A stretch of 64,000 bases of DNA. Origin: a virus. The translations under genes were made by a program, and so were the position numbers. Under the pieces are notes generated by a model, which made no database searches, was not told the DNA's origin, and worked only from the letters and a program-made list of their open reading frames with translations. Numbering within the stretch: position 1 is the first letter of the stretch; each line of letters starts with the position of its first letter. Below, one piece after another: positions 24,756-63,562 of the stretch. The stretch lies in the UHGV virus genome UHGV-1351982, one strand, 5' to 3'.

Positions 24756-25969
24756 TCTTTATCCCCATCGGCAGTGCCTTGCGGTCTACCACCTTCTTGA
24801 CCAGATACACCTGTTGCAGAACCAGCAACGTTAGCAGGAATACGAATCTTATTCATCTGCTCATCATCTAAAGGTTCAAGGTTAAGCTCTTCACGAGCTT
24901 CGTTACCAGTCATGATACCGTTATTAACCAAAGAGGTTAAATGTTTAGCCTCAGCTTCTTTATCTGGCGTCAGTGCAGCTACTTCCTTAGTATTAGGAGT
25001 AACCTTGTAGCCAAAGAAGAAAGTAAGAGAACTAGTCAGCTTGTTCAGCATAGGAATGATAGTCATGTAATAGAACAATTCGATGTTTGGTCGAATGTTA
25101 GCATTATTACCACCATCAAGTAACACTTGCGGAACACCAAAGGCAAGACAGATGGATTTATTAAATCCTTCGATATCTTCCTTGAAGTCTAGATCTTTAA
25201 AAGAGGATATTTGGGAGTACGGTTTTGCTTTCATACCACCATCTAGAATCAGGACAGTAGACTGACCAGTACTAGGATTATAATCGAGTTGTAATTCTTC
25301 TTGTTTACGCTCACGCAATTTCTTGTTCAGGATTTCATCCGTCTCAAGAATAAGACCAATCACTGTGCCGTTATCGAGGAACTTCTCTTTAAAGTTAAGC
25401 ATTTTAGAACGCTTCTCAAGAGAGTCAATAACTGTAGCAACACGAGATTGTCCAGAAATTTGGGAGTTTGTGCCACACACGTAACTGTTATCCTTTATAA
25501 AGATAATCTCATCTACGCGATAGTCTATCTGGTTATTAAATATGAATTTTTTGATAAACTTATTGGCATCTGCCTCTACTTGCATTAGTGCAGCAGGGAC
25601 ATGGTAAAGTGCTGTGCCATCCCAATAGATGTATGCACAACCCTCAAAAAGTAGGTCAGTGACTACAAGTCTACGGAATGTGCTTATATCCATGAATGGA
25701 TTAGGTCGTACATTTAAGAGAGTGTCTAGAGTCTTTGCCTTGACGCCATTAGCGTACGTGACAATATTATATTTATCTCCGACAGTATAAGAACACTCCG
25801 CCGCACTATCGATAACCATGTTAGCAGTTCGGTTGAGAATCTCAATCTTACTGTAGGCTTGTCCAGTGGTAAATGGCTTACGGTTAGTGCGATGACTAAC
25901 TGGTTCCATGTCTCTTATAATACGTTGACCCGGATTTAGCTTTTCAGTAATCCAGCTTTTTAAACCCAT
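24752..25969 (-). CDS. pb7: portal protein (T5 pb7-like)
   Basis: 405 aa, downstream of terminase side of the head module; acidic C-terminus. Confidence 0.75.
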   Translation of the reverse strand: MGLKSWITEKLNPGQRIIRDMEPVSHRTNRKPFTTGQAYSKIEILNRTANMVIDSAAECSYTVGDKYNIVTYANGVKAKTLDTLLNVRPNPFMDISTFRRLVVTDLLFEGCAYIYWDGTALYHVPAALMQVEADANKFIKKFIFNNQIDYRVDEIIFIKDNSYVCGTNSQISGQSRVATVIDSLEKRSKMLNFKEKFLDNGTVIGLILETDEILNKKLRERKQEELQLDYNPSTGQSTVLILDGGMKAKPYSQISSFKDLDFKEDIEGFNKSICLAFGVPQVLLDGGNNANIRPNIELFYYMTIIPMLNKLTSSLTFFFGYKVTPNTKEVAALTPDKEAEAKHLTSLVNNGIMTGNEAREELNLEPLDDEQMNKIRIPANVAGSATGVSGQEGGRPQGTADGDKE

Positions 25970-26493
25970 TATAAGAACCTTGCGAATCCTGATTTAATTT
26001 CAGTCTTGACTTGTGTCTTTTCTTGAGGATTCTGTAGCTTTTCCTTTTGTTTAAGAACCCATACCTTCTGCTTATTAGCAGAGAAAAGGGGAGGTTCTTT
26101 AGTGTACACCTTATGTAATAGTTGGTGATGGTGGACACAAAGGGTAACAGTGTCATCTACTAGCTCATGCCTATATCTTTCATAGAATGCCGTCCTATTT
26201 GAGAGGACTGTTTCTTCGTCAGTGAAATCCAACTGGAGTTCTTTAGCAAATTTTTTAACTAGTAGAGACACTGTATGGTAATGATGAAGCTCTAATTCTT
26301 CACCACAACCACAGATTTCGCAGCGATCGGCTTTTTTATATTGACTTTTTATACCGTCTCGCATGAGTGATATAGCATCACGTTTATATTTTACATTTCC
26401 TGCCACAGTATTCTCCTCAACTGTATGAATATAGTATACATAATCATGTCGAATTTGTAAAGGGGATTTTAAAATGCAGGAATGGGATACCAA
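25969..26493 (-). CDS. HNH-type endonuclease-like protein
   Basis: Cys/His clusters CEICGCGEELELHHYH and LCVHHHQLLH; located between terminase and portal. Confidence 0.4.
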   Translation of the reverse strand: MVSHSCILKSPLQIRHDYVYYIHTVEENTVAGNVKYKRDAISLMRDGIKSQYKKADRCEICGCGEELELHHYHTVSLLVKKFAKELQLDFTDEETVLSNRTAFYERYRHELVDDTVTLCVHHHQLLHKVYTKEPPLFSANKQKVWVLKQKEKLQNPQEKTQVKTEIKSGFARFL

Positions 26494-26520: not shown

Positions 26521-27837
26521 TTATTTCCCACGGGAAATTGAGTAAATTCCATAACGCAGTGCGTCACAAAGGTGAGAGTTCGCATCATGACGTGGTTTTT
26601 CACGTGATAATTTCTCTTCGCCTTCCTGGAAGTCCCACTTGTAGTTCGCTAGGGCGTGGATCAATGAGGTACATGAAGCATCTACGATGATCTTGCCTTG
26701 CTGGAACAGTGCTTGCAGACATGCCAAACCATCTAGGACAGATTTCTTAGCAGGTGCAGAAGCGATTTCATGTTCATATGCTAAGTCCTGACGGAACTGA
26801 GCAGCAGCGGAGTCTACAAATATACGATCAACATTATAACGATCTATGCAGTGTTGGATATAAGCAGCGTGTTGAGCTGTAGTCTTTTCAGCTTGCTGAT
26901 ATTCTTCCAGTACGTAATAAACATCAGTATCATAGTGATACTTGATAGTAAGAACTGCTGTAGGGTCACGATAACCAACGTCGATACCAAGTAATGTTTC
27001 GAAAGCCTCATCATCTTTAAAGAAGTGGCGCATACCTTTGAGGTCTTTAACATGTTCGATAGCATTGAAGGTGTCAAAGATCTGACCTTCGAATACAGAG
27101 AAGTCAGCCTCATATTCTTGACGGAAGTAGTTTTTACTAACAGTACGACGCGCTTCTTCGATATCGTTCAGATCAGCACGTGGGTTATCACGATATGTAC
27201 CATGAATAGATACCCAGTTAGGTAGCGTTTCGTTAAATCCTTTCTCATAGAACTCTTTAAACCAGTTACCACCACGAGGTGTGGAAATAAACAGAGCTTT
27301 AGAGTTTGGCTTATCTAGAGTAGGACGTAACTGAATATCGAAAGCTGCACCACCAACGTCGGAAATCGCTGCTTCGTCAAAAATGATGAAGTCATATGAA
27401 CGACCAACCGCGGAGTCAGCCTGCGCCGCAGAAGCCAGCTTAAAGAGAGAGCCGTTTGCTAGCTCAATCTCTTTATCTTTGGCGTTCTCACGTTCAGTCT
27501 GTAGTCCATACTTCTTAATAAGACCACGAATCTGTGACCAACCGATGTTAGCCAGTGAGTAGTTAGGTGCAACTACCAGCACCTTCACATTGGGTTCCAG
27601 AAGTTTTAGGAACCCAAGTGTATATGCGATGAATGACTTACCTACACGACGTGATACACATGCAGTCACGAAGCGGTGTCTTGGGTCTTCCAGCGCATTA
27701 ATGATTGCAATCTGAGGGGCATTAGGTGTAATTCCCTCTTGAGCTAGAATGCTAGAGACTGGCAGACGGAAGAATCGTTTGTCAATACCAAAGTCAATAA
27801 CATCTGTGGTGTTAATATAGTCTCTAGAGACTTTCAT
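26521..27837 (-). CDS. terL: terminase large subunit
   Basis: 438 aa; Walker A VSRRVGKS, Walker B FIIFDEA, C-terminal nuclease-like region (IDVGYRDP, VDSA). Confidence 0.85.
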   Translation of the reverse strand: MKVSRDYINTTDVIDFGIDKRFFRLPVSSILAQEGITPNAPQIAIINALEDPRHRFVTACVSRRVGKSFIAYTLGFLKLLEPNVKVLVVAPNYSLANIGWSQIRGLIKKYGLQTERENAKDKEIELANGSLFKLASAAQADSAVGRSYDFIIFDEAAISDVGGAAFDIQLRPTLDKPNSKALFISTPRGGNWFKEFYEKGFNETLPNWVSIHGTYRDNPRADLNDIEEARRTVSKNYFRQEYEADFSVFEGQIFDTFNAIEHVKDLKGMRHFFKDDEAFETLLGIDVGYRDPTAVLTIKYHYDTDVYYVLEEYQQAEKTTAQHAAYIQHCIDRYNVDRIFVDSAAAQFRQDLAYEHEIASAPAKKSVLDGLACLQALFQQGKIIVDASCTSLIHALANYKWDFQEGEEKLSREKPRHDANSHLCDALRYGIYSISRGK

Positions 27838-28319
27838 TATCTCTTACCTCCTCCTGCTAGAGCGGTAATAAGATTCATATAGTTTTCGTCACCACTTCCA
27901 GCAATAATATTATTCTGAATATTAGTCTGGTTAGCCGGAGTACGGGCTGCTGCCTTCACTTTCTCCAGTTCTACCATCATTTTCATTTCTTCCATCTTCA
28001 TCTTGTGCGCCTTCCAGAGAATATCCATGATATCCTGGTCAGAACCCATGCCAGTTTCTTCGAGTTCTTCCAACTTGCGCTTGATAACTTCATCAAGAAC
28101 TCCGAATAAGCGGTCACGATTACGGAAGCCGCTTTCCATAAAGATATCGTTAAGATAGTTTTTAACTTCCCCACGATTCATTATATCACGGAATGCAATC
28201 TCGGACATCCCAAGACTACGAGCAGCGGCAGGAACATCACTACCGCACTGTAAATAGGCTTCAATAACATCCATGCCTTCGGGAGACATGAGATCGGGAA
28301 CTAATACATCATTTGCCAT
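27837..28319 (-). CDS. putative terminase small subunit
   Basis: 160 aa directly upstream of terL with overlapping stop/start; HTH-like N-terminus. Confidence 0.45.
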
Positions 28320-28329
28320 ATATCCTCCT

Positions 28330-30111
28330 TTAGGTTAGGCGTTGAACTGTTACACGTAGTCTTGGCAAGAAAACAGCTGCCGCTTCTGCAGCGTGAATGA
28401 TAACACCCAACTCAACGTTGCCATTACCAAGGTTTTTAATAGTATAAATATATCCGTTCCTACGGAAAGCAAACTTATCAGGCCTACTAGCCCAAGTTTG
28501 TGTATAACTATAGGAAGTTGTACTGTGATAAGGTACTAGATATCCAGGTGGCAGAGTAAGAATCTGGTGGAATACACCATCACCAGCTGTATAACTTTGT
28601 TGACGTCTACCTTGTACCTGCCAAGCGCTACCGCCGTAAGTACGCACAGGCATTCCAGCAGTATTAAGATTACCCATAATAACTTCAGTAGTTAATATAA
28701 CGGTAGAGTGAGCATTAGGTAATCCTAACCAAACAGTGGCCAAAGGTGTATAGAAGTCACCAGCACCAGGGTAGGAAGGAGTTATATCATCACCAACATA
28801 AGTACTTGCAACGTTGCCTGGAAATAACCTGAGGGGTACAGTACTAGGACTCCACACAGGTCCATGTTCATTACCGATGGAGTTGGTATTAGTATCTACA
28901 TACCATTGTTTACCTACACCAAATTTATATAAGCTAATTTGAGAAGCTGCACCCCCATAGTTAACAGGAGACCACAACCCGCCATTACTAGAGCCGATAA
29001 ATTCACATCGTGCAGTATTATCACCAAAAACTCCGGTATACGCAGCGTTATTACCAACATACTCCATATCAGGGCGATAGCCTAAGTTTCCAAAGGCATT
29101 CTGGTTAATGAATTTATATCCTGTATTTGGTAAACTAACACCTTTAATAGTAAAGTTAGATGGAGATATTAGGATATCTGAACCGGTAAATGGATTACCA
29201 GAAACTCCCATACTACCATTAGAATAGCGCAGATTTAGCACATACCAAATAACCTTAGTTGGCGTAACGTTATACCAGTCCTGTACATATACCTTTCTAG
29301 CAGACTGAGCAGCCATATTAGAAGTAGAACCTCTACAAACATATATTTTTTTTGGATATGCAGGAGATTGGTAAAGAACGTTTACGTTATCTGGTAGTAC
29401 ACCTTTCTTACCTGCAAAGCCACGAATATTAGAATTACAAACATAAAACCAATCATGGCCTCTACCAGCAGAACCAACAGGCGCCTGCCAGTTAGGTTCC
29501 CAATAATCTGCGTTACCACCATCTAAAGGAACAGTAGAGACACCAGTTGGAAAACCCATAAGACTCCAGGCTCTGGCAATGGCTTCACCAGCAGAAACAC
29601 CACCAGGTCTAAAGATCTGGAAACCAGAGGACTGTAGTAAACTGCCTCCAGAACCTTGCCGAGCAATAGATTCCTCATGACCAAGACCACCATTATAGAT
29701 ATAGGTACCATGAGCTAAACTATCACCGATCGCAAAAGCAGATGTTACAGATAATTCAGCACCAGCACGTGGTTGGTCTTCAAAGAATGATAAGAACTGG
29801 CCAACCTGAGATTGTGTACCATTAAGGAAACCCCTATGAGTACCATTTATCTCAATAGCAGTTAATATAACTCTACCAGGATCATTGGATTTAATGTTTA
29901 TAATATCCCAAGGCATCTGAGTAACAAAGTACCCATTACCTGCATCACCTAGGGCAGCCTCATAAGTCCCATCAACTAGGACGAAGGGCATATCTGAGTG
30001 GAAGATACTATTAGTATTTGGAGAGTAGTGCTGATTTATATCACCACCATTAGCAGCGTTTAGAGATAATACAGTTTTACCATCACTAAATTTTCCTGCG
30101 AAAAAACTCAT
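28330..30111 (-). CDS. oad: receptor-binding protein (T5 pb5/oad-like)
   Basis: 593 aa; N-terminus [18 protein letters not shown]...IFHSDM resembles my recollection of T5 pb5; divergently adjacent to llp as in T5-like phages. Confidence 0.6.
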
Positions 30112-30136
30112 ACAATCTCCTTCTTTAAAAATGTAT

Positions 30137-30165
30137 TTGCTTAGATCCCTCTATTTTGCTATAAT
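30137..30165 (+). promoter_or_regulatory. early-type promoter (TTGCTT-N17-TATAAT) with ATAAATT leader upstream of llp
   Basis: Hexamers and spacing read directly; same family as minus-strand early promoters. Confidence 0.55.
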
Positions 30166-30194
30166 ATATTTATAAATTAAACAGAGGAACGATT

Positions 30195-30461
30195 ATGAAA
30201 AAGTTACTAGCTATCGTAGTTGCAGCAGTAGTGTTGACTGGTTGTGTGCCAGCTCCCGAGCCATTTTGTAGGGCATATGTGAAGTCTTATGGTCATGTTG
30301 GTGAAGAACACTACGCTTTAGATATTCGAGAAGCACGTACTGTGGGCTACCGATTCCCTAAAACTCAGTTACGCACTAAGTTTGGGTGGTGGGATTTGTC
30401 ACAGTTTGATCTCAAATATGGCGATTGCAAATTTAAACTAGAACAATCTGGTCACTTGTAA
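30195..30461 (+). CDS. llp: lipoprotein Llp-like (receptor-blocking superinfection exclusion)
   Basis: Signal peptide with lipobox LTGC; small; divergent from the receptor-binding gene as in T5. Confidence 0.6.
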   Translation: MKKLLAIVVAAVVLTGCVPAPEPFCRAYVKSYGHVGEEHYALDIREARTVGYRFPKTQLRTKFGWWDLSQFDLKYGDCKFKLEQSGHL

Positions 30462-30535: not shown

Positions 30536-30850
30536 ATGCAAGATGAAGAAAAGTCCTTTCAGGAACCTGTTAACTTTGAAATAGATCCCAGGACTAAAGC
30601 AATACATGATGCGATTAACGAAATCATTCAAGACGTCATAGAAGATACAATGGAAGATGTGATGGGAACATCCTTCTTACTAGAAGAATCCGGCTTCGAT
30701 GAAGTAATGGATCTTATCGGGACAGTCATAATGGTTCGTGCAATTGCTAGGATATTCCAAATACCAGGACTACAGGAGAAGCAAAGAGATGTCAGACGAC
30801 AACAGAAGAAAGAACAGACGCGGGGAAGTGTACGAAAGTTGGATAAATAG
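30536..30850 (+). CDS. hypothetical acidic protein
   Basis: 104-aa ORF, acidic N-terminal half, basic C-terminus. Confidence 0.4.
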   Translation: MQDEEKSFQEPVNFEIDPRTKAIHDAINEIIQDVIEDTMEDVMGTSFLLEESGFDEVMDLIGTVIMVRAIARIFQIPGLQEKQRDVRRQQKKEQTRGSVRKLDK

Positions 30851-30923
30851 TTTCGGATTCGGGACTGTATTATTCTTTATCTTTGTACTCTTTTGGTTAG
30901 CGGCTATGGCGGGATGGTTATAA
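30738..30923 (+). CDS. possible small membrane protein (overlapping, uncertain)
   Basis: C-terminal hydrophobic helix GTVLFFIFVLFWLAAMAGWL; overlaps previous ORF in another frame. Confidence 0.25.
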   Translation: MQLLGYSKYQDYRRSKEMSDDNRRKNRRGEVYESWINSFGFGTVLFFIFVLFWLAAMAGWL

Positions 30924-31026
30924 TGGAAGTAGTAATTATTGCTTTACTAGTTGTGGTACTTATCGGGCAGTGCATCTTAGACAACCACTTAGCTCGTATC
31001 GAACGTAAGCTGCGGGGAGACAAATA

Positions 31027-31221
31027 ATGGATTGGTTAGGACTTATTACACTTGTAGTATGGCTTGTCTGGATTGTTGGATATATGACTTCACATCGTAA
31101 CCGTATACAGCGGCTAGAGGATAAAGTCACCCAGCTTAATATTAATATGGATAAGTTACTGGACTCCCAACGTAATGATCGGGCACGTATTCACCAACTT
31201 GAGAGGGAATTAGATGTTTAG
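31027..31221 (+). CDS. small membrane protein
   Basis: 64 aa with N-terminal TM helix LGLITLVVWLVWIVGY. Confidence 0.4.
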   Translation: MDWLGLITLVVWLVWIVGYMTSHRNRIQRLEDKVTQLNINMDKLLDSQRNDRARIHQLERELDV

Positions 31222-31441
31222 CTTTGTAGCTATCTTCATTATCGGGGTGCTTGCGGGAATCTTCGGAACACTCGGGGCTATTAACAAGCATCGTGAATAC
31301 GTTGCGGGAGTATCGCGGGAGCTTTCGGAAAGGGAGCGGAAGTTTGCGGAGAAACGTGCGGAGTTTGAGCGAGAGTGGTCGGATGGATCTCGGGCGTCGC
31401 AGAGGAGGTTTCGGGCTGATTCCGTGAGTTCTCCTAAGTAG
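31214..31441 (+). CDS. small membrane protein
   Basis: 75 aa with N-terminal TM helix FSFVAIFIIGVLAGIFGTLGAI. Confidence 0.4.
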   Translation: MFSFVAIFIIGVLAGIFGTLGAINKHREYVAGVSRELSERERKFAEKRAEFEREWSDGSRASQRRFRADSVSSPK

Positions 31442-31599: not shown

Positions 31600-32334
31600 T
31601 TAGGCAACTTTTAATTTATCAATGAATTGTTGCGGTGTGGTACTATATTCCGCGCGTTCTTCCTCGGTCATACCTTCCCAACACATTTTTAAACGTTCGG
31701 CTAGGAATTGATAATCGTTATCATCATCAAGCGATTCATCAATAAAGGTTTCACCGATCAATGTTACGCCGATTGATAGGATATCGTTAACGGCTTGAGC
31801 ATCCAGCGTTTTAAATCCAGCACTTGCCGCCGCTGATAATACACCTTTATGATCATCAATCATTGTAAAATCAGCATTAGGATATAGCTGTTTAAACAGT
31901 TCAAAGTAATAAGATTTATATACAGCGTCTTTACTGTGGTATATTTCGCTAACCTTATTTGCATCAAAGTATTTATGTAATGTATCGCGGGAAAATACGC
32001 GAATATTACTATTTCCGCGCCCTCGCAAGCCTTGTTTGCGTAAATAAAAATAATCGCTTTTAGACATTAGGCGCGCGGTACAAATAATATTTAAAGTATT
32101 TGCATCATTCATACATTGGCGCATATATTCAACCAATGGCAATAAAGAATCCTGCATAATTAAATCATGCTTGCAGGCTTCGCGGGAATATTTATTTAAA
32201 TCTAAATTCCCATTATCATCAAAACAAGGCCCGACACGGTGCATTGAGTTAATGATTGTACCGTCTAAATCCCAAATCATAACGCGGGAAATATGCGGGA
32301 AAGTGCGGGTAATATTCATGTTGACTTGATTCAT
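31600..32334 (-). CDS. dmp: 5'-deoxyribonucleotidase (T5 Dmp-like, HAD-family)
   Basis: 244 aa, same length as T5 Dmp; HAD motif I VMIWDLDGTI near N-terminus. Confidence 0.6.
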   Translation of the reverse strand: MNQVNMNITRTFPHISRVMIWDLDGTIINSMHRVGPCFDDNGNLDLNKYSREACKHDLIMQDSLLPLVEYMRQCMNDANTLNIICTARLMSKSDYFYLRKQGLRGRGNSNIRVFSRDTLHKYFDANKVSEIYHSKDAVYKSYYFELFKQLYPNADFTMIDDHKGVLSAAASAGFKTLDAQAVNDILSIGVTLIGETFIDESLDDDNDYQFLAERLKMCWEGMTEEERAEYSTTPQQFIDKLKVA

Positions 32335-59818: not shown

Positions 59819-59894
59819 TGGTAGTTAGTAGTGGATTTGAACCACTGTAGTCGCTCCGTATGAAGGAGGTGCATAACCTCTCTGCCAACTAACT
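59819..59894 (-). tRNA. tRNA, anticodon CAU (Met or Ile2), encoded CCA
   Basis: Manual fold: acceptor AGTTAGT/ACTAACT, T-arm AGTGG-TTCAAAT-CCACT, anticodon loop TTCATAC. Confidence 0.5.
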
Positions 59895-59990
59895 ATTATG
59901 TTTTACTAGACTAAGTAAGTATTCTTTATACTCTTTAGACCAATTAGCTTTTTTAAACTTTCCTGGACGCATAGTCTTACTTCCTAAATT

Positions 59991-60067
59991 TGGTACTCCG
60001 GGAGGGATTTAAACCCCCGATCTCTCGGTTATCAGCCGAGTGCTTTAGATCGCTAAGCTACCGAAGC
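59991..60067 (-). tRNA. tRNA-Ile (GAU), encoded CCA
   Basis: Manual fold: anticodon arm CTCGG-CTGATAA-CCGAG, T-loop TTTAAAT, acceptor GCTTCGG/CCGGAGT. Confidence 0.55.
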
Positions 60068-60068
60068 A

Positions 60069-60275
60069 TTAACATTTAATTGCAGAACGTTTACCATTTC
60101 TAGGCGCACCTGGAAGTCGTGCACGTTCTGCCATTCTTCGCTTAATCTTTGAGATATTTTCTAGTGTTTGTTCTTCAGGCTTAATACCTGAAACACTACA
60201 CCACTGATTACCATCCCATGCGGTAATGATCATAACACCATTGCCCATAATCTTTTCTGTGAAAGTAATTCTCAT
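60069..60275 (-). CDS. hypothetical small protein (68 aa)
   Basis: ORF between tRNAs. Confidence 0.35.
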   Translation of the reverse strand: MRITFTEKIMGNGVMIITAWDGNQWCSVSGIKPEEQTLENISKIKRRMAERARLPGAPRNGKRSAIKC

Positions 60276-60568
60276 TATAACAACTCGTCTAAGTAAGAGG
60301 TATACTGGTATTTAGCTTCACCAGTTTTATCTACTTCGACTTCTGTTCTAGGTACTTTTCGTACCAGACCGTGAATCATCTTATATTGAATAGATTTAGA
60401 TGGTTCGTGATCTTTAGGAAAGACCTGCTTAACTGTAACTACTTTAAATCCCTCACGTGGTGTTAGTACAACAACTTGATCACCTTCTTTGATTTTCCAA
60501 GACTCAGGAAATTCATAAGTGTAGCGTTGACCACCGGTAAGGAATATAACAGAAAGATAACGTTTCAT
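60275..60568 (-). CDS. hypothetical protein (97 aa)
   Basis: ORF after promoter and leader. Confidence 0.4.
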   Translation of the reverse strand: MKRYLSVIFLTGGQRYTYEFPESWKIKEGDQVVVLTPREGFKVVTVKQVFPKDHEPSKSIQYKMIHGLVRKVPRTEVEVDKTGEAKYQYTSYLDELL

Positions 60569-60598
60569 TTGGTTTTCCTCTCATTAATTTATATAAAC

Positions 60599-60627
60599 AT
60601 TATATCAAGAAATAAGAGGAAAGGCAA
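60599..60627 (-). promoter_or_regulatory. early promoter (TTGCCT-N17-TGATATAAT)
   Basis: Minus strand; conserved leader before ATG at 60568. Confidence 0.5.
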
Positions 60628-60642
60628 ATGAATTTTTAAATT

Positions 60643-60717
60643 TGGTGCTCCCACCAGGAATCGAACCCGGTTCAGATGCTTACAAGGCAACTGCATCGCC
60701 AGCAATGCTTTAGGAGC
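60643..60717 (-). tRNA. tRNA-Thr (UGU), encoded CCA
   Basis: Manual fold: D-stem GCAT/ATGC, anticodon loop CTTGTAA, T-arm CCGGG-TTCGATT-CCTGG. Confidence 0.55.
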
Positions 60718-60884
60718 AATAAACCCGTTATTTCAACGGGATTTCTTTTTCAAATACAGGAGACTTATCAGACATTACTGTCATAGCCAACTGCTGTAGA
60801 AATTCGAATGAGAGTTTTAAACGTTCTTCGCCCAACTCAACCTCAACGCGCTTCATTCGTTTATCTACCTTTATCTTTAGATTA

Positions 60885-61106
60885 TCAGCCATCTTCGGGT
60901 TCTCTTTGCTCAGCTATTGCTAGCCAGTCTGGTAAAAGAAACTTAGTACGAAATTCTTCATATGTTTCTTCCGGATGAAAGCTATAGCCTTGCTTTTCAT
61001 CATTTAATAAAACCGAACCGTCTTCCTGCTCATAAGCTCGGTATGTTTCACCAATAATTAAAACTCGCCTATTAGGATTTTTATTACGAAACTCAAAAAC
61101 GTCCAT
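60885..61106 (-). CDS. hypothetical small protein (73 aa)
   Basis: ORF between tRNAs. Confidence 0.35.
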   Translation of the reverse strand: MDVFEFRNKNPNRRVLIIGETYRAYEQEDGSVLLNDEKQGYSFHPEETYEEFRTKFLLPDWLAIAEQREPEDG

Positions 61107-61121
61107 AACGTTTCCTTAAAT

Positions 61122-61196
61122 TGGTGCGGGATACGAGAGTCGAACTCGTGTCTACTGGTTGGAAGCCAGTTATTCTAGCCACTGAACTAATCACGC
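61122..61196 (-). tRNA. tRNA-Gly (UCC), encoded CCA
   Basis: Manual fold: anticodon arm ACTGG-CTTCCAA-CCAGT, T-arm ACGAG-TTCGACT-CTCGT. Confidence 0.6.
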
Positions 61197-61203
61197 ATTC
61201 GTT

Positions 61204-61279
61204 TGGCTGGAGAAGGAGGAATCGAACCTACCATTAACGGAGTCAAAGGCCGTTGTGCTAACCATTACACTACTCTCCA
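61204..61279 (-). tRNA. tRNA-Gln (UUG), encoded CCA
   Basis: U1-A72 pair and G73 as in E. coli tRNA-Gln; anticodon loop CTTTGAC. Confidence 0.5.
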
Positions 61280-61285
61280 AGTATT

Positions 61286-61361
61286 TGGCTGGGATGCCAC
61301 GGATCGAACGTGGAACCTTCGGAGTCAGAGGCCGACGATCTGCCAATTGATCTACATCCCA
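61286..61361 (-). tRNA. tRNA-Gln (CUG), encoded CCA
   Basis: U1-A72, G73; anticodon loop CTCTGAC; T-arm CCACG-TTCGATC-CGTGG. Confidence 0.5.
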
Positions 61362-61369
61362 ATAATTTT

Positions 61370-61570
61370 TTATTCTTCAGGAACCGTGGCTATTGGATCT
61401 GGTTCTTCTAGACGTTTACCATTATGATCGACACGAATAATGCCACAACCTTCACAGATTACAACAGCACCATAGCCTTCTTTAACTTCGGCTTCTGTAA
61501 TCAGACCAGATAAATCACCAGTATCTTTGCCCCACATATCAATAGAGCATTCTTTGCAGAAATCAGCCAT
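61370..61570 (-). CDS. small zinc-ribbon-like protein (66 aa)
   Basis: CKEC ... CEGC paired Cys motifs. Confidence 0.4.
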   Translation of the reverse strand: MADFCKECSIDMWGKDTGDLSGLITEAEVKEGYGAVVICEGCGIIRVDHNGKRLEEPDPIATVPEE

Positions 61571-61594
61571 ATTTTAGTTCCTGTATAAGTTAAT

Positions 61595-61669
61595 TGGTGC
61601 ATCCTCAGGGAATCGAACCCCGATCGTAAAGTTCGTAGCTTTACATTCTTTCCGTTGAAATAAGGACGC
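61595..61669 (-). tRNA. tRNA-Arg (ACG), encoded CCA
   Basis: Manual fold: anticodon arm TAAAG-CTACGAA-CTTTA, acceptor GCGTCCT/AGGATGC. Confidence 0.5.
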
Positions 61670-61675
61670 AATATT

Positions 61676-61752
61676 TGGGGTGGCTAGTGGAATTCGAATC
61701 CACATAGGCCTGATTCACAATCAGGATCATTAACCAATTATGATATAGCCAC
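61676..61752 (-). tRNA. tRNA-His (GUG), encoded CCA
   Basis: Manual fold: D-stem TCAT/ATGA, anticodon arm CCTGA-TTGTGAA-TCAGG, T-arm GTGGA-TTCGAAT-TCCAC, C73. Confidence 0.6.
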
Positions 61753-62116
61753 AATTGAAAACCATTGAGGAGTAGCGAACTCTCTACACTAGAAGCTTGC
61801 ATGCTCATACCTAGTGATTAGACCTAGCAAATAGGCGCTACAAGTAACGACCCTAAGTGGTAGACTCAAACAGACAATGATTTTCAATTGTGGCGGCTCT
61901 CCGAAACTCATCACACTAACAACTAGTTGATTACTTCTGGATTCTCGCCCAGAAAATTCTCTAGAAAGGTGCACCGTTACTCTTTGAGCCATTGATGATG
62001 GGATGGTCTCTCATCCCCACTAACTACTTAATCCTTACGATTCGTCGGTTAGCACGAGCAGCAACCCTTCATATATAATTTATAGTGCCCAGAAGGTCAT
62101 TAGAAGCACTTTATCA

Positions 62117-62246
62117 AGAAGTAGAAGGACTCGAACCTTCAAGAGATAGACCATTTATCTCAGCCTCGTTTTCGGGTATCTTATGAGGAGTGGATGTTCC
62201 CCTTACGCCCTTTAGGAAGCCCCGTCTACCGATTCCGGCATACTTC
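62117..62246 (-). ncRNA. tRNA-like structured RNA (about 130 nt; T-arm and acceptor pairing but no canonical cloverleaf)
   Basis: GAAGG-TTCGAGT-CCTTC T-arm, acceptor-like pairing GAAGTAT/CTACTTC about 115 nt apart, internal 6-bp hairpin GAGATA-AATGGTC-TATCTC; no long ORF. Confidence 0.3.
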
Positions 62247-62255
62247 AAGAATTAT

Positions 62256-62459
62256 TTAAAACTTGTAACCTTTGGGAACCTTATCTTTAACACCGATATA
62301 CTCAGCTTGGATGTAGTATGTTGGCACATGATCTTTAGGTAGATCTTTATTTACATCATTAACTTCCATCAAGGCTTCGGCCTCGGTGTCAAATGGGCGA
62401 TACCAGATTTCACCACCCCAGCCACGTTCACTTTCAGTATACTTAACAATGTGTTTCAT
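62256..62459 (-). CDS. hypothetical small protein (start trimmed to MKHIVKY)
   Basis: ORF-track start at 62510 would overlap tRNA-Ser; internal Met at 62459 has upstream AGGAAAAC. Confidence 0.35.
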   Translation of the reverse strand: MKHIVKYTESERGWGGEIWYRPFDTEAEALMEVNDVNKDLPKDHVPTYYIQAEYIGVKDKVPKGYKF

Positions 62460-62477
62460 AAGGTTTTCCTTATTAGT

Positions 62478-62567
62478 TGGAGGAAGGTAATGGAGTCGAA
62501 CCATCACCATATCGCTACAGCGGGCAGGTTTTCAAGACCTGTTACATACCACTATGTCCTACCTTCC
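62478..62567 (-). tRNA. tRNA-Ser (UGA), type II with long variable arm, encoded CCA
   Basis: Perfect acceptor GGAAGGT/ACCTTCC, anticodon arm CAGGT-CTTGAAA-ACCTG, variable hairpin CGCT-GT-AGCG. Confidence 0.6.
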
Positions 62568-62794
62568 AGTATTTGTTCTACTTCTTTGCGTAGATCTTCT
62601 GGATTATCATGATAGGTTGTTTGCCATACATAAATAACCCCGGCATCACATGCTTTATCAAAGATTTCTCGCTCAGGAAGTTTCATCCCCATTGCATACT
62701 TGATATGTAACTCTAGAGCTTGCTTACTAGGGAATGTATGACGCAAGAAAAACTTATCATTAGCTAAATCCAACATCATAATTTTGACTTTCAT
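62552..62794 (-). CDS. hypothetical small protein (80 aa)
   Basis: ORF; 3' end overlaps tRNA-Ser 5' end by about 16 nt. Confidence 0.35.
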   Translation of the reverse strand: MKVKIMMLDLANDKFFLRHTFPSKQALELHIKYAMGMKLPEREIFDKACDAGVIYVWQTTYHDNPEDLRKEVEQILEGRT

Positions 62795-62815
62795 TTATAT
62801 CCCCTATTAGTTGTT

Positions 62816-62907
62816 TGGCGGAAGAAGAGAGATTCGAACTCTCAAGCCTGCTTTCACAAGTCAGCCACTTTCCAAGCGGTTTTCGTCACCTATCGATTTG
62901 CTCTTCC
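62816..62907 (-). tRNA. type II tRNA, probably tRNA-Ser (GGA), encoded CCA
   Basis: Acceptor GGAAGAG/TTCTTCC, T-arm GAGAG-TTCGAAT-CTCTC, candidate anticodon loop TTGGAAA; D-arm atypical. Confidence 0.4.
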
Positions 62908-63081
62908 GTAGATCTCAGGATTAAATCATAAACTTCATTAGCGGATACTGGAAGTATGAGATTATACATCTTTTGGTCATACCTCTGACCATACTCTATA
63001 AACACATACTCTTTAGTTAATGTATTAACAGCTAACCAGATATCAGTTATAGGAGTTTTCATCATGAGTTAATCTAATGTT

Positions 63082-63162
63082 TGGTAGGGATGGAGGGACT
63101 CGAACCCACACCCGAAGACTAGAACCTAAATCTAGCGCGTCTGCCAATTTCGCCACATCCCC
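63082..63162 (-). tRNA. tRNA-Leu (UAG), encoded CCA
   Basis: Anticodon arm CTAGA-TTTAGGT-TCTAG, extended variable arm, acceptor GGGGATG/CATCCCT. Confidence 0.5.
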
Positions 63163-63169
63163 ATTTTAT

Positions 63170-63388
63170 TTAGTTAGAAATAAATAATAATCCCGCAACA
63201 ATGGAACCTACGCCACTGAATACCATTATCAGCATAGCTTCTAAGCTGATAAAGCGGACAGTATATGGAGCGCCCCAAGAATAATCAGTAAAGAAAGTTT
63301 TCTTTTCTTTAGCTAAATCTTTAACAGTTCTAAAATAGATAGCTAGTGCTAAAGCTGCAAGAACTACAGAGGCTGCTAAGAATACCAT
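63170..63388 (-). CDS. small membrane protein (72 aa)
   Basis: Two hydrophobic helices. Confidence 0.35.
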   Translation of the reverse strand: MVFLAASVVLAALALAIYFRTVKDLAKEKKTFFTDYSWGAPYTVRFISLEAMLIMVFSGVGSIVAGLLFISN

Positions 63389-63407
63389 ATTATTTCCTTA
63401 ATTTGTT

Positions 63408-63483
63408 TGGTGGAGTCACTCAGAATTGAACTGAGTTCCACTGCTTGCAAGGCAGTAAGTTTAACCAAATAACCTATGACCCC
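63408..63483 (-). tRNA. tRNA-Cys (GCA), encoded CCA
   Basis: Anticodon arm ACTGC-CTTGCAA-GCAGT, T-arm CTCAG-TTCAATT-CTGAG. Confidence 0.6.
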
Positions 63484-63488
63484 GAATT

Positions 63489-63562
63489 TGGTGGAGAAAG
63501 AGGGAGTTGAACCCTCGTCTTCTGCGTGCAAAGCAGATGTTCTACCATTAAACTATATCCCC
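63489..63562 (-). tRNA. tRNA-Ala (UGC), encoded CCA
   Basis: Anticodon arm TCTGC-TTTGCAC-GCAGA, T-arm GAGGG-TTCAACT-CCCTC. Confidence 0.55.

Follow-up and report, generated by a model that had tools for sequence, protein, structure and literature searches.

The stretch of DNA analysed here (the window; 64,000 nucleotides of the UHGV virus genome UHGV-1351982) carries a 2,132-bp module of two genes at positions 28330–30461. One gene encodes a receptor-binding protein (RBP) of 593 amino acids that is homologous to the tail-tip proteins pb5, Hrs and Oad (28330–30111, minus strand; N-terminus MSFFAGK), and the other, llp, encodes the 88-amino-acid precursor of a putative receptor-blocking, or ‘lytic conversion’, outer-membrane lipoprotein of the Epseptimavirus type (30195–30461, plus strand; N-terminus MKKLLAIVVAAVVLTGC). 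The genes run in opposite directions, and their start codons are separated by an 83-bp control region (30112–30194). Positions 30195–30245 (plus strand) encode the signal peptide of Llp and its lipobox, MKKLLAIVVAAVVL-T-G-C. The RBP gene lies immediately upstream of the terminase genes terS (27837–28319, minus strand) and terL (26521–27837, minus strand), an order that matches T5, DT57C, SPC35 and Stitch. Our list of open reading frames (ORFs) agrees with a first-pass annotation of this locus, which had reported the 593-residue RBP and the 88-residue lipoprotein with an LTGC lipobox, and had suggested that such a pair differs from that of T5 and co-varies with the outer-membrane receptor used by the phage.

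The window derives from an Epseptimavirus, a T5 relative of the EPS7/Stitch/TrudiRoth type. Over 24 kb surrounding the module, the sequence is 95–97% identical to, and colinear with, NG_S8, NBSal002 and Stitch, and the phages fetched from the best-matching group carry the Epseptimavirus classification. The module DNA is 95–99% identical to 126 deposited phage records, in which the genes are annotated as receptor-binding and receptor-blocking proteins. The closest DNA matches are the Salmonella phages SIY1lw and KKP_3831 (98.5%), the latter with an RBP that is 99.7% identical in amino acid sequence, and further matches include Stitch, S147, rokbiter, Sds2 and Escherichia phage TrudiRoth. Dozens of records in the EPS7/TrudiRoth-like group share the gene order, the protein lengths (593 and 88 amino acids) and the promoter of the window at 97–98.5% DNA identity, with differences of only a few residues; the modules of EPS7, TrudiRoth, Stitch, S126 and EscoHU1 carry essentially the same allele.

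Full-length homology places the RBP among the pb5/Hrs/Oad tail-tip proteins of the Markadamsvirinae. Residues 1–593 align to positions 1–650 of phrog_4815 (‘receptor binding tail protein’) with E = 3e-283, and the sole PDB sequence matches are the T5 pb5 chains 8b14_B and 8a8c_B (E = 1.6e-46; stretches 1–195 and 274–593). No Pfam or NCBIfam family scores above threshold for this protein. Compared by BLASTP across their full length, the window RBP and T5 pb5 are 29% identical (E = 3e-52), and this similarity is unevenly distributed, with 57% identity in residues 1–30, roughly 45% across the first 100 and 13–27% in residues 91–300. The extreme C-terminus (...LP.L...QRLT) is conserved between the two proteins. 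At 640 amino acids, T5 pb5 is 47 residues longer than the window RBP, and the insertions fall in the loop region. These values bear out the earlier description of a pb5-like N-terminus on a protein of different length. T5 pb5, which binds FhuA, is a homologue with conserved termini that occupies the same slot upstream of the terminase genes (29–35% identity), and near-identity to the T5 pair was observed neither for the RBP (29%) nor for Llp (21%). T5, for whose pb5 and Llp the structures 8A8C, 8B14, 8A60 and 7QJF are available, provides the mechanistic model for the module.

Comparison with phages of assigned receptor class indicates that the module is of a type other than the FhuA type of T5, and points to BtuB. 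The RBP and Llp of the window are, respectively, 98.7% and 98.9% identical to those of TrudiRoth (Bas30), 90.1% and 98.9% identical to those of S126, 83% and 69% identical to those of SPC35, 76% and 68% identical to those of BF23, and 66% and 67% identical to those of DT57C, all of which belong to the BtuB class. In contrast, the corresponding values are around 35% and around 21% (the latter from a multiple alignment) for the FhuA-class phages T5 and S131. Two FepA-class loci, those of S124 and of a 104,373-bp contig, have RBPs of 32–33% identity, and no Llp was found in either. Thus, aligned with the references that the first-pass annotation had named, the RBP falls into the BtuB cluster (66–83%, including BF23 and DT57C), apart from the FhuA and FepA classes. 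EPS7 also fits this grouping, with an Llp that is 97.7% identical and RBP fragments that are 95–98% identical to the window proteins.

The receptor assignments for these relatives come from published work. TrudiRoth needs btuB, and the knockout was fully complemented (PMC8594841, S8 and S9 Figs). According to the same study, the terminal receptor can be predicted from the RBP cluster, and BtuB is the target of nearly all Markadamsvirinae. BtuB dependence has been reported for EPS7, SPC35, DT57C, BF23 and phiR2-01 (PMC8624392), with the EPS7 case going back to Hong 2008 as that work is cited in PMC8624392 and PMC8594841. Furthermore, S126 is among the listed BtuB binders (PMC12980165) and BtuB use has been stated for EscoHU1 (PMC12887010). 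Because even the segment of the window RBP that varies most shares 97.6% identity with TrudiRoth, BtuB can safely be inferred to be the receptor of the window phage. Judged in this way, the pair is a standard and already annotated BtuB-type module of the EPS7/TrudiRoth kind that is already known. Its divergence from T5 is a textbook property of the BtuB class rather than a peculiarity of this genome, and was reported by Mondigler 2006 and Hong 2008, as cited in PMC4728585 and PMC8624392.

The lipoprotein has the predicted signal peptide and lipobox that are characteristic of Llp and Cor proteins. The lipobox L-T-G-C occupies residues 14–17, with Cys17 as the predicted lipidated first mature residue and Val at position +2. 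The Pfam lipid-attachment family LPAM_1 matches residues 1–17 with E = 0.0026, just under its curated cut-off. In the Lol sorting pathway, Asp at position +2 serves as a retention signal. Since Llp has Val at this position and no Asp retention signal, sorting to the outer membrane is expected, and the protein is predicted to reside in the inner leaflet facing the periplasm.

The relationship of this lipoprotein to T5 Llp depends on the method of comparison. In a pairwise search, the earlier statement that the two proteins do not resemble each other stands: BLASTP aligns the window Llp (88 amino acids) with T5 Llp (77 amino acids) at E = 0.06, which is not significant and covers the signal peptide and a few further residues, and a multiple alignment gives 21% identity. 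At the profile level, the statement does not hold. Llp matches phrog_1119 (‘Cor superinfection exclusion protein’) end to end with E = 2e-23, and full-length matches to the same profile are obtained for BF23 Llp (E = 2e-26) and T5 Llp (E = 1e-19). The cysteine pattern is also shared, with residues 17 (lipidation), 25 and 78 in the window protein and residues 16, 26 and 73 in T5 Llp. Cys25 and Cys78 are invariant in the Llp alignments, and in T5 Llp both non-lipidated cysteines form a Cys11–Cys58 disulphide (PMC9586334); an equivalent disulphide is predicted for the window protein. The T5 and BF23 Llps have often been called non-homologous in the literature. However, because the T5, BF23 and window proteins have a full-length phrog_1119 match and the cysteine pattern in common, remote homology seems likely, and these similarities argue for membership of T5 and window Llps in the same Cor/Llp family.

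Structural and family searches provide further information on Llp. Modelled with AlphaFold2 from an alignment of 11 sequences, Llp reaches a predicted local distance difference test score (pLDDT) of 83 and contains five strands and a C-terminal helix. The second-best structural match in BFVD is a T1-like ‘super-infection exclusion protein’ (E = 5e-3). A PDB sequence search with Llp returned no match, even at E values up to 10. No Pfam or NCBIfam family matches Llp above its curated threshold; the Cor match is sub-threshold (E = 0.068), and the NCBIfam Cor equivalog model scores 13.2 bits against a cut-off of 31. The Cor lipoproteins of T1, phi80 and N15-type phages are likewise small outer-membrane lipoproteins that fall into phrog_1119, although they differ from the window Llp in target receptor (FhuA) and phage family. 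Llp and Cor proteins have been reported to share roughly 20% identity, disulphide included (PMC9586334).

Functional data exist for the BF23/DT57C type of Llp: when this protein was supplied in trans, plating dropped more than 100-fold for both BF23 and DT57C, and T5 was unaffected (PMC4728585). The window Llp is 67–69% identical to the Llps of BF23, DT57C and SPC35 and, by analogy with the tested proteins, most likely blocks the receptor as well.

The control region between the two genes is also consistent with this relationship. Alignment with the BF23 and T5 promoters identifies a –35 hexamer for llp, TTGCTT (30137–30142, plus strand), followed after a 17-nucleotide spacer by an extended –10 element, TGcTATAAT, with its TATAAT hexamer at 30160–30165 (plus strand). 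These hexamers coincide with the annotated llp –35 and –10 elements of BF23 and, in T5, with T5P41, a putative early promoter; both are invariant among the window, TrudiRoth, BF23, SPC35, DT57C and T5. The divergent early/late layout of this promoter region is also shared with T5. A consensus promoter scan missed this promoter, whose –35 element fits the consensus at three of six positions. The 83-bp spacer also contains the ribosome-binding sites of llp (GAGGAA; 30184–30189, plus strand) and of the RBP gene (AAGGAG; 30117–30122, minus strand). Because both hexamers are invariant and match the BF23 and T5 promoters, the sequences indicate that the receptor cassette is swapped inside a conserved regulatory frame. 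Indeed, the llp slot and promoter are alike in every FhuA- and BtuB-class locus examined.

Taken together, these findings suggest, with a probability of roughly 0.9, that positions 28330–30461 constitute an Epseptimavirus host-recognition module composed of a BtuB-binding RBP and a BtuB-blocking Llp. In this model, the conserved N- and C-terminal parts of the RBP most likely dock on the straight tail fibre, and its variable loops (residues 91–270 or so, probably together with a C-terminal loop as in T5) would insert into the extracellular side of BtuB, a TonB-dependent transporter of vitamin B12. Such insertion would lead to irreversible adsorption and DNA ejection. In infected cells, llp would be expressed from the conserved σ70 early promoter; after secretion and lipidation on Cys17, its product would reach the inner leaflet of the outer membrane. 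If it acts on BtuB as T5 Llp does on FhuA, the lipoprotein would then bind the transporter at its plug or periplasmic face and lock it in a state that the RBP of the same phage cannot bind. This lock would cause superinfection exclusion and could also spare progeny phages from adsorbing to cell debris. T5 Llp acts from the periplasm and allosterically, in that it binds the plug side of the transporter and the extracellular loops fold over the RBP site (PMC9586334), and we infer a comparable mode of action for the window protein.

Several points weigh against this model. The paper describing SIY1lw, the phage with the closest DNA match, calls its receptor ‘unclear’, and the phiR2-01 paper says that a functional test is still needed for its own Llp homologue. 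We found no functional test of an Epseptimavirus-type Llp in the literature, and neither PDB sequence searches nor a literature search yielded a solved complex of BtuB with an RBP or with Llp. By homology, the TrudiRoth data settle the question of the SIY1lw receptor.

The view that the RBP uses a different receptor, in place of BtuB or alongside it, draws on this judgement of the SIY1lw authors, who regarded the receptor as unknown, and on the observation that residues 91–270 range from 50% to 100% identity even among RBPs that accompany a common Llp type. Nevertheless, we consider it highly improbable, given that the loop region is 97.6% identical to that of the strictly btuB-dependent TrudiRoth, that the RBPs of DT57C, BF23 and SPC35 all use BtuB despite their divergence, and that RBPs of the FhuA and FepA classes are just 32–35% identical to that of the window. 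Even less credible is the proposal that the 88-residue ORF encodes a generic phage lipoprotein without a receptor-blocking function, with its position beside the RBP gene being incidental. Although this would agree with the lack of a Pfam or NCBIfam family above threshold, where only LPAM_1 and the sub-threshold Cor match (E = 0.068) appear, it is difficult to reconcile with the 67–69% identity to the functionally tested BF23 and DT57C Llps, the full-length match to the Cor/Llp PHROG, the common slot and promoter in all FhuA- and BtuB-class loci examined, and the strong purifying selection on the C-terminal third of the protein described below.

The alternative that retains most weight, although we regard it as unlikely, accepts the BtuB module and holds that the Epseptimavirus-type Llp works differently from T5 Llp, for example without plug remodelling, at the cell surface or at a step after adsorption. 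Such a difference would have arisen in spite of a full-length profile family, a cysteine pattern, a genomic slot and a promoter that the window and T5 proteins share. Val at position +2 furthermore predicts a location on the periplasmic side of the outer membrane, in its inner leaflet, and the reverse-allostery mechanism has been argued to generalize across TonB-dependent transporters (PMC9586334). We therefore favour a BtuB-blocking Llp that resembles T5 Llp in its mode of action.

To compare RBPs with Llps, 38 loci were tabulated; a scan of viral contigs contributed two loci with the window Llp type, and intermediate RBP alleles were taken from individual GenBank phage records. Two main Llp types occur in the BtuB class among these loci, and metagenomic clusters add intermediate variants. 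A large protein search returned 10 clusters at 64–98% identity and no more distant relatives. Window-type Llps (at least 96.6% identical) are always found with 593-residue RBPs that share 96% identity or more with the window RBP over the first 100 residues, whereas BF23-type Llps are found with RBPs of 585, 586, 590 or 595 amino acids. BF23, DT57C and SPC35, which are Tequintavirus members, share the receptor class, architecture and promoter of the window, and the RBPs of these references have 595 or 586 residues compared with 593 here. A published Llp tree likewise separates an S126-type clade from the SPC35/BF23 branch (PMC12980165).

The two Llp types diverge mainly at mature residues 18–57, which are about 52% identical, with a ratio of nonsynonymous to synonymous divergence (dN/dS) of around 0.3. 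Synonymous divergence (dS) is saturated in this segment, indicating that the two alleles separated long ago and are not variants of recent origin. In residues 58–88, amino acid identity is 93.5% compared with 80–83% at the nucleotide level, with dN/dS values of 0.06–0.10 and dS above 1, a pattern that indicates strong purifying selection on the C-terminal third. A recent recombination mosaic was considered as the origin of this shared C-terminal third and was rejected on the basis of the 80–83% nucleotide identity and the dS above 1.

In the RBP, identity calculated in 30-residue bins drops across residues 91–270 (29302–29841, minus strand) in every comparison. For example, the RBPs of STWB21 and AKM_ECS, which have the same Llp type as the window, are 50–87% identical to the window protein in residues 91–270 versus 93–100% in residues 1–90, and the dN/dS values for these phages are 0.20–0.25 in residues 91–270 versus 0.05 in residues 271–593. 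In T5 pb5, the tips of loops L1 (Gln115) and L2 (Phe170) insert into the receptor (PMC9586334), and T5 pb5 residues 115 and 170 align to residues 114 and 173 of the window RBP, within the hypervariable segment. Positive selection was sought in Llp residues 18–57 and RBP residues 91–270 and was not seen at this resolution, with dN/dS values that are raised (0.2–0.3) but well below 1.

Relative to S126 and STWB21, dS in the RBP gene is 0.11 across codons 1–90 and 0.6–1.1 beyond, a jump that marks codon 90 or its vicinity as a recombination boundary. The 5′ end of the RBP gene is thus inherited in one block with the promoter region and llp, and the loop-encoding part is exchanged independently, in agreement with the mosaicism reported for DT57C (PMC4728585). 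The earlier proposal that the RBP/Llp pair co-varies with the receptor consequently needs to be divided. In these alignments, co-variation is strict between receptor classes, as proposed, but loose within the BtuB class, where the Llp type is linked to no part of the RBP gene beyond its 5′ end. In one speculative scenario, to which we assign little weight, each Llp type might hold BtuB in a state of its own or suit the BtuB orthologues of particular hosts (such as Salmonella and E. coli). Exclusion among BtuB phages would then be only partly reciprocal, and the RBP loop segment would take part in an arms race between phages that compete for one receptor. The pattern of Llp types also fits plain relaxed constraint combined with genetic linkage.

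The practical worth of these findings lies in annotation, namely a confident prediction of BtuB as the terminal receptor. If BtuB is used as predicted, loss of btuB is the expected route to resistance, and infected cells should become refractory to other BtuB-dependent T5-like phages. Such predictions are relevant to the design of phage cocktails with non-overlapping receptors. The module contributes no new biology, as it is annotated in more than 100 genomes and experiments with near-identical phages have already established its receptor.

Some minor variation was observed among the closest relatives. No identical Llp is present among 398 matching phage records, with the best match at 98.9%. 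Codon 26 of the window Llp (30270–30272), directly after Cys25, encodes Arg, and Lys is found at this position in the NG_S8 cluster and in EPS7; the Llps of TrudiRoth, S126 and STWB21 likewise differ from the window at this codon. Arg26 is a conservative change and possibly a strain variant. EPS7 Llp carries one additional Ala relative to the window protein. The EPS7 RBP gene (NC_010583) is split by frameshifts in the deposited record into two ORFs of 237 and 296 amino acids and has no CDS annotation in the RefSeq record; either sequencing-error frameshifts or a true pseudogene would explain this arrangement.

Downstream of llp, between this gene and the terminal-repeat region, a group of small genes occupies positions 30536–31441 (plus strand). 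They encode a 104-residue acidic protein (phrog_16810; 30536–30850), a 64-residue protein (phrog_5851) and a 75-residue membrane protein (phrog_6447), with possible membrane ORFs of 61 and 44 residues interspersed, and are conserved across T5-like phages without known function. In the FepA-class loci of S124 and the 104,373-bp contig, the gene divergent from the 637-residue RBP is a homologue of the phrog_16810 gene, and no lipobox-containing ORF of at least 30 amino acids lies between the two genes in either locus. The llp slot therefore appears to be empty in these FepA-class sequences; a published Llp tree nevertheless lists ‘Llp’ entries for H8 and S124 (PMC12980165).

Other features lie elsewhere in the window. 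An ORF of 244 amino acids (31600–32334, minus strand) lies at the position of the T5 dmp gene and of the deoxynucleoside-5′-monophosphatase gene of Stitch. In T5 and Stitch, this gene sits just inside the terminal repeat, so in the window the late region is probably followed directly by single-copy terminal-repeat sequence. Just downstream of terL, a 174-residue ORF (25969–26493, minus strand) carries a CxxC...HH motif and matches phrog_3497, a family of unknown function, with E = 1.5e-67. It has a weak match to an HNH endonuclease PHROG (E = 2e-5) and no Pfam match, and is a candidate homing endonuclease; the ORF at the equivalent position in Stitch differs in size. Finally, 13 tRNA genes, as is typical of T5-like genomes, are located at positions 59819–63562 (minus strand), with specificities for Met, Ile, Thr, Gly, Gln (two), Arg, His, Ser (two), Leu and Ala (two).

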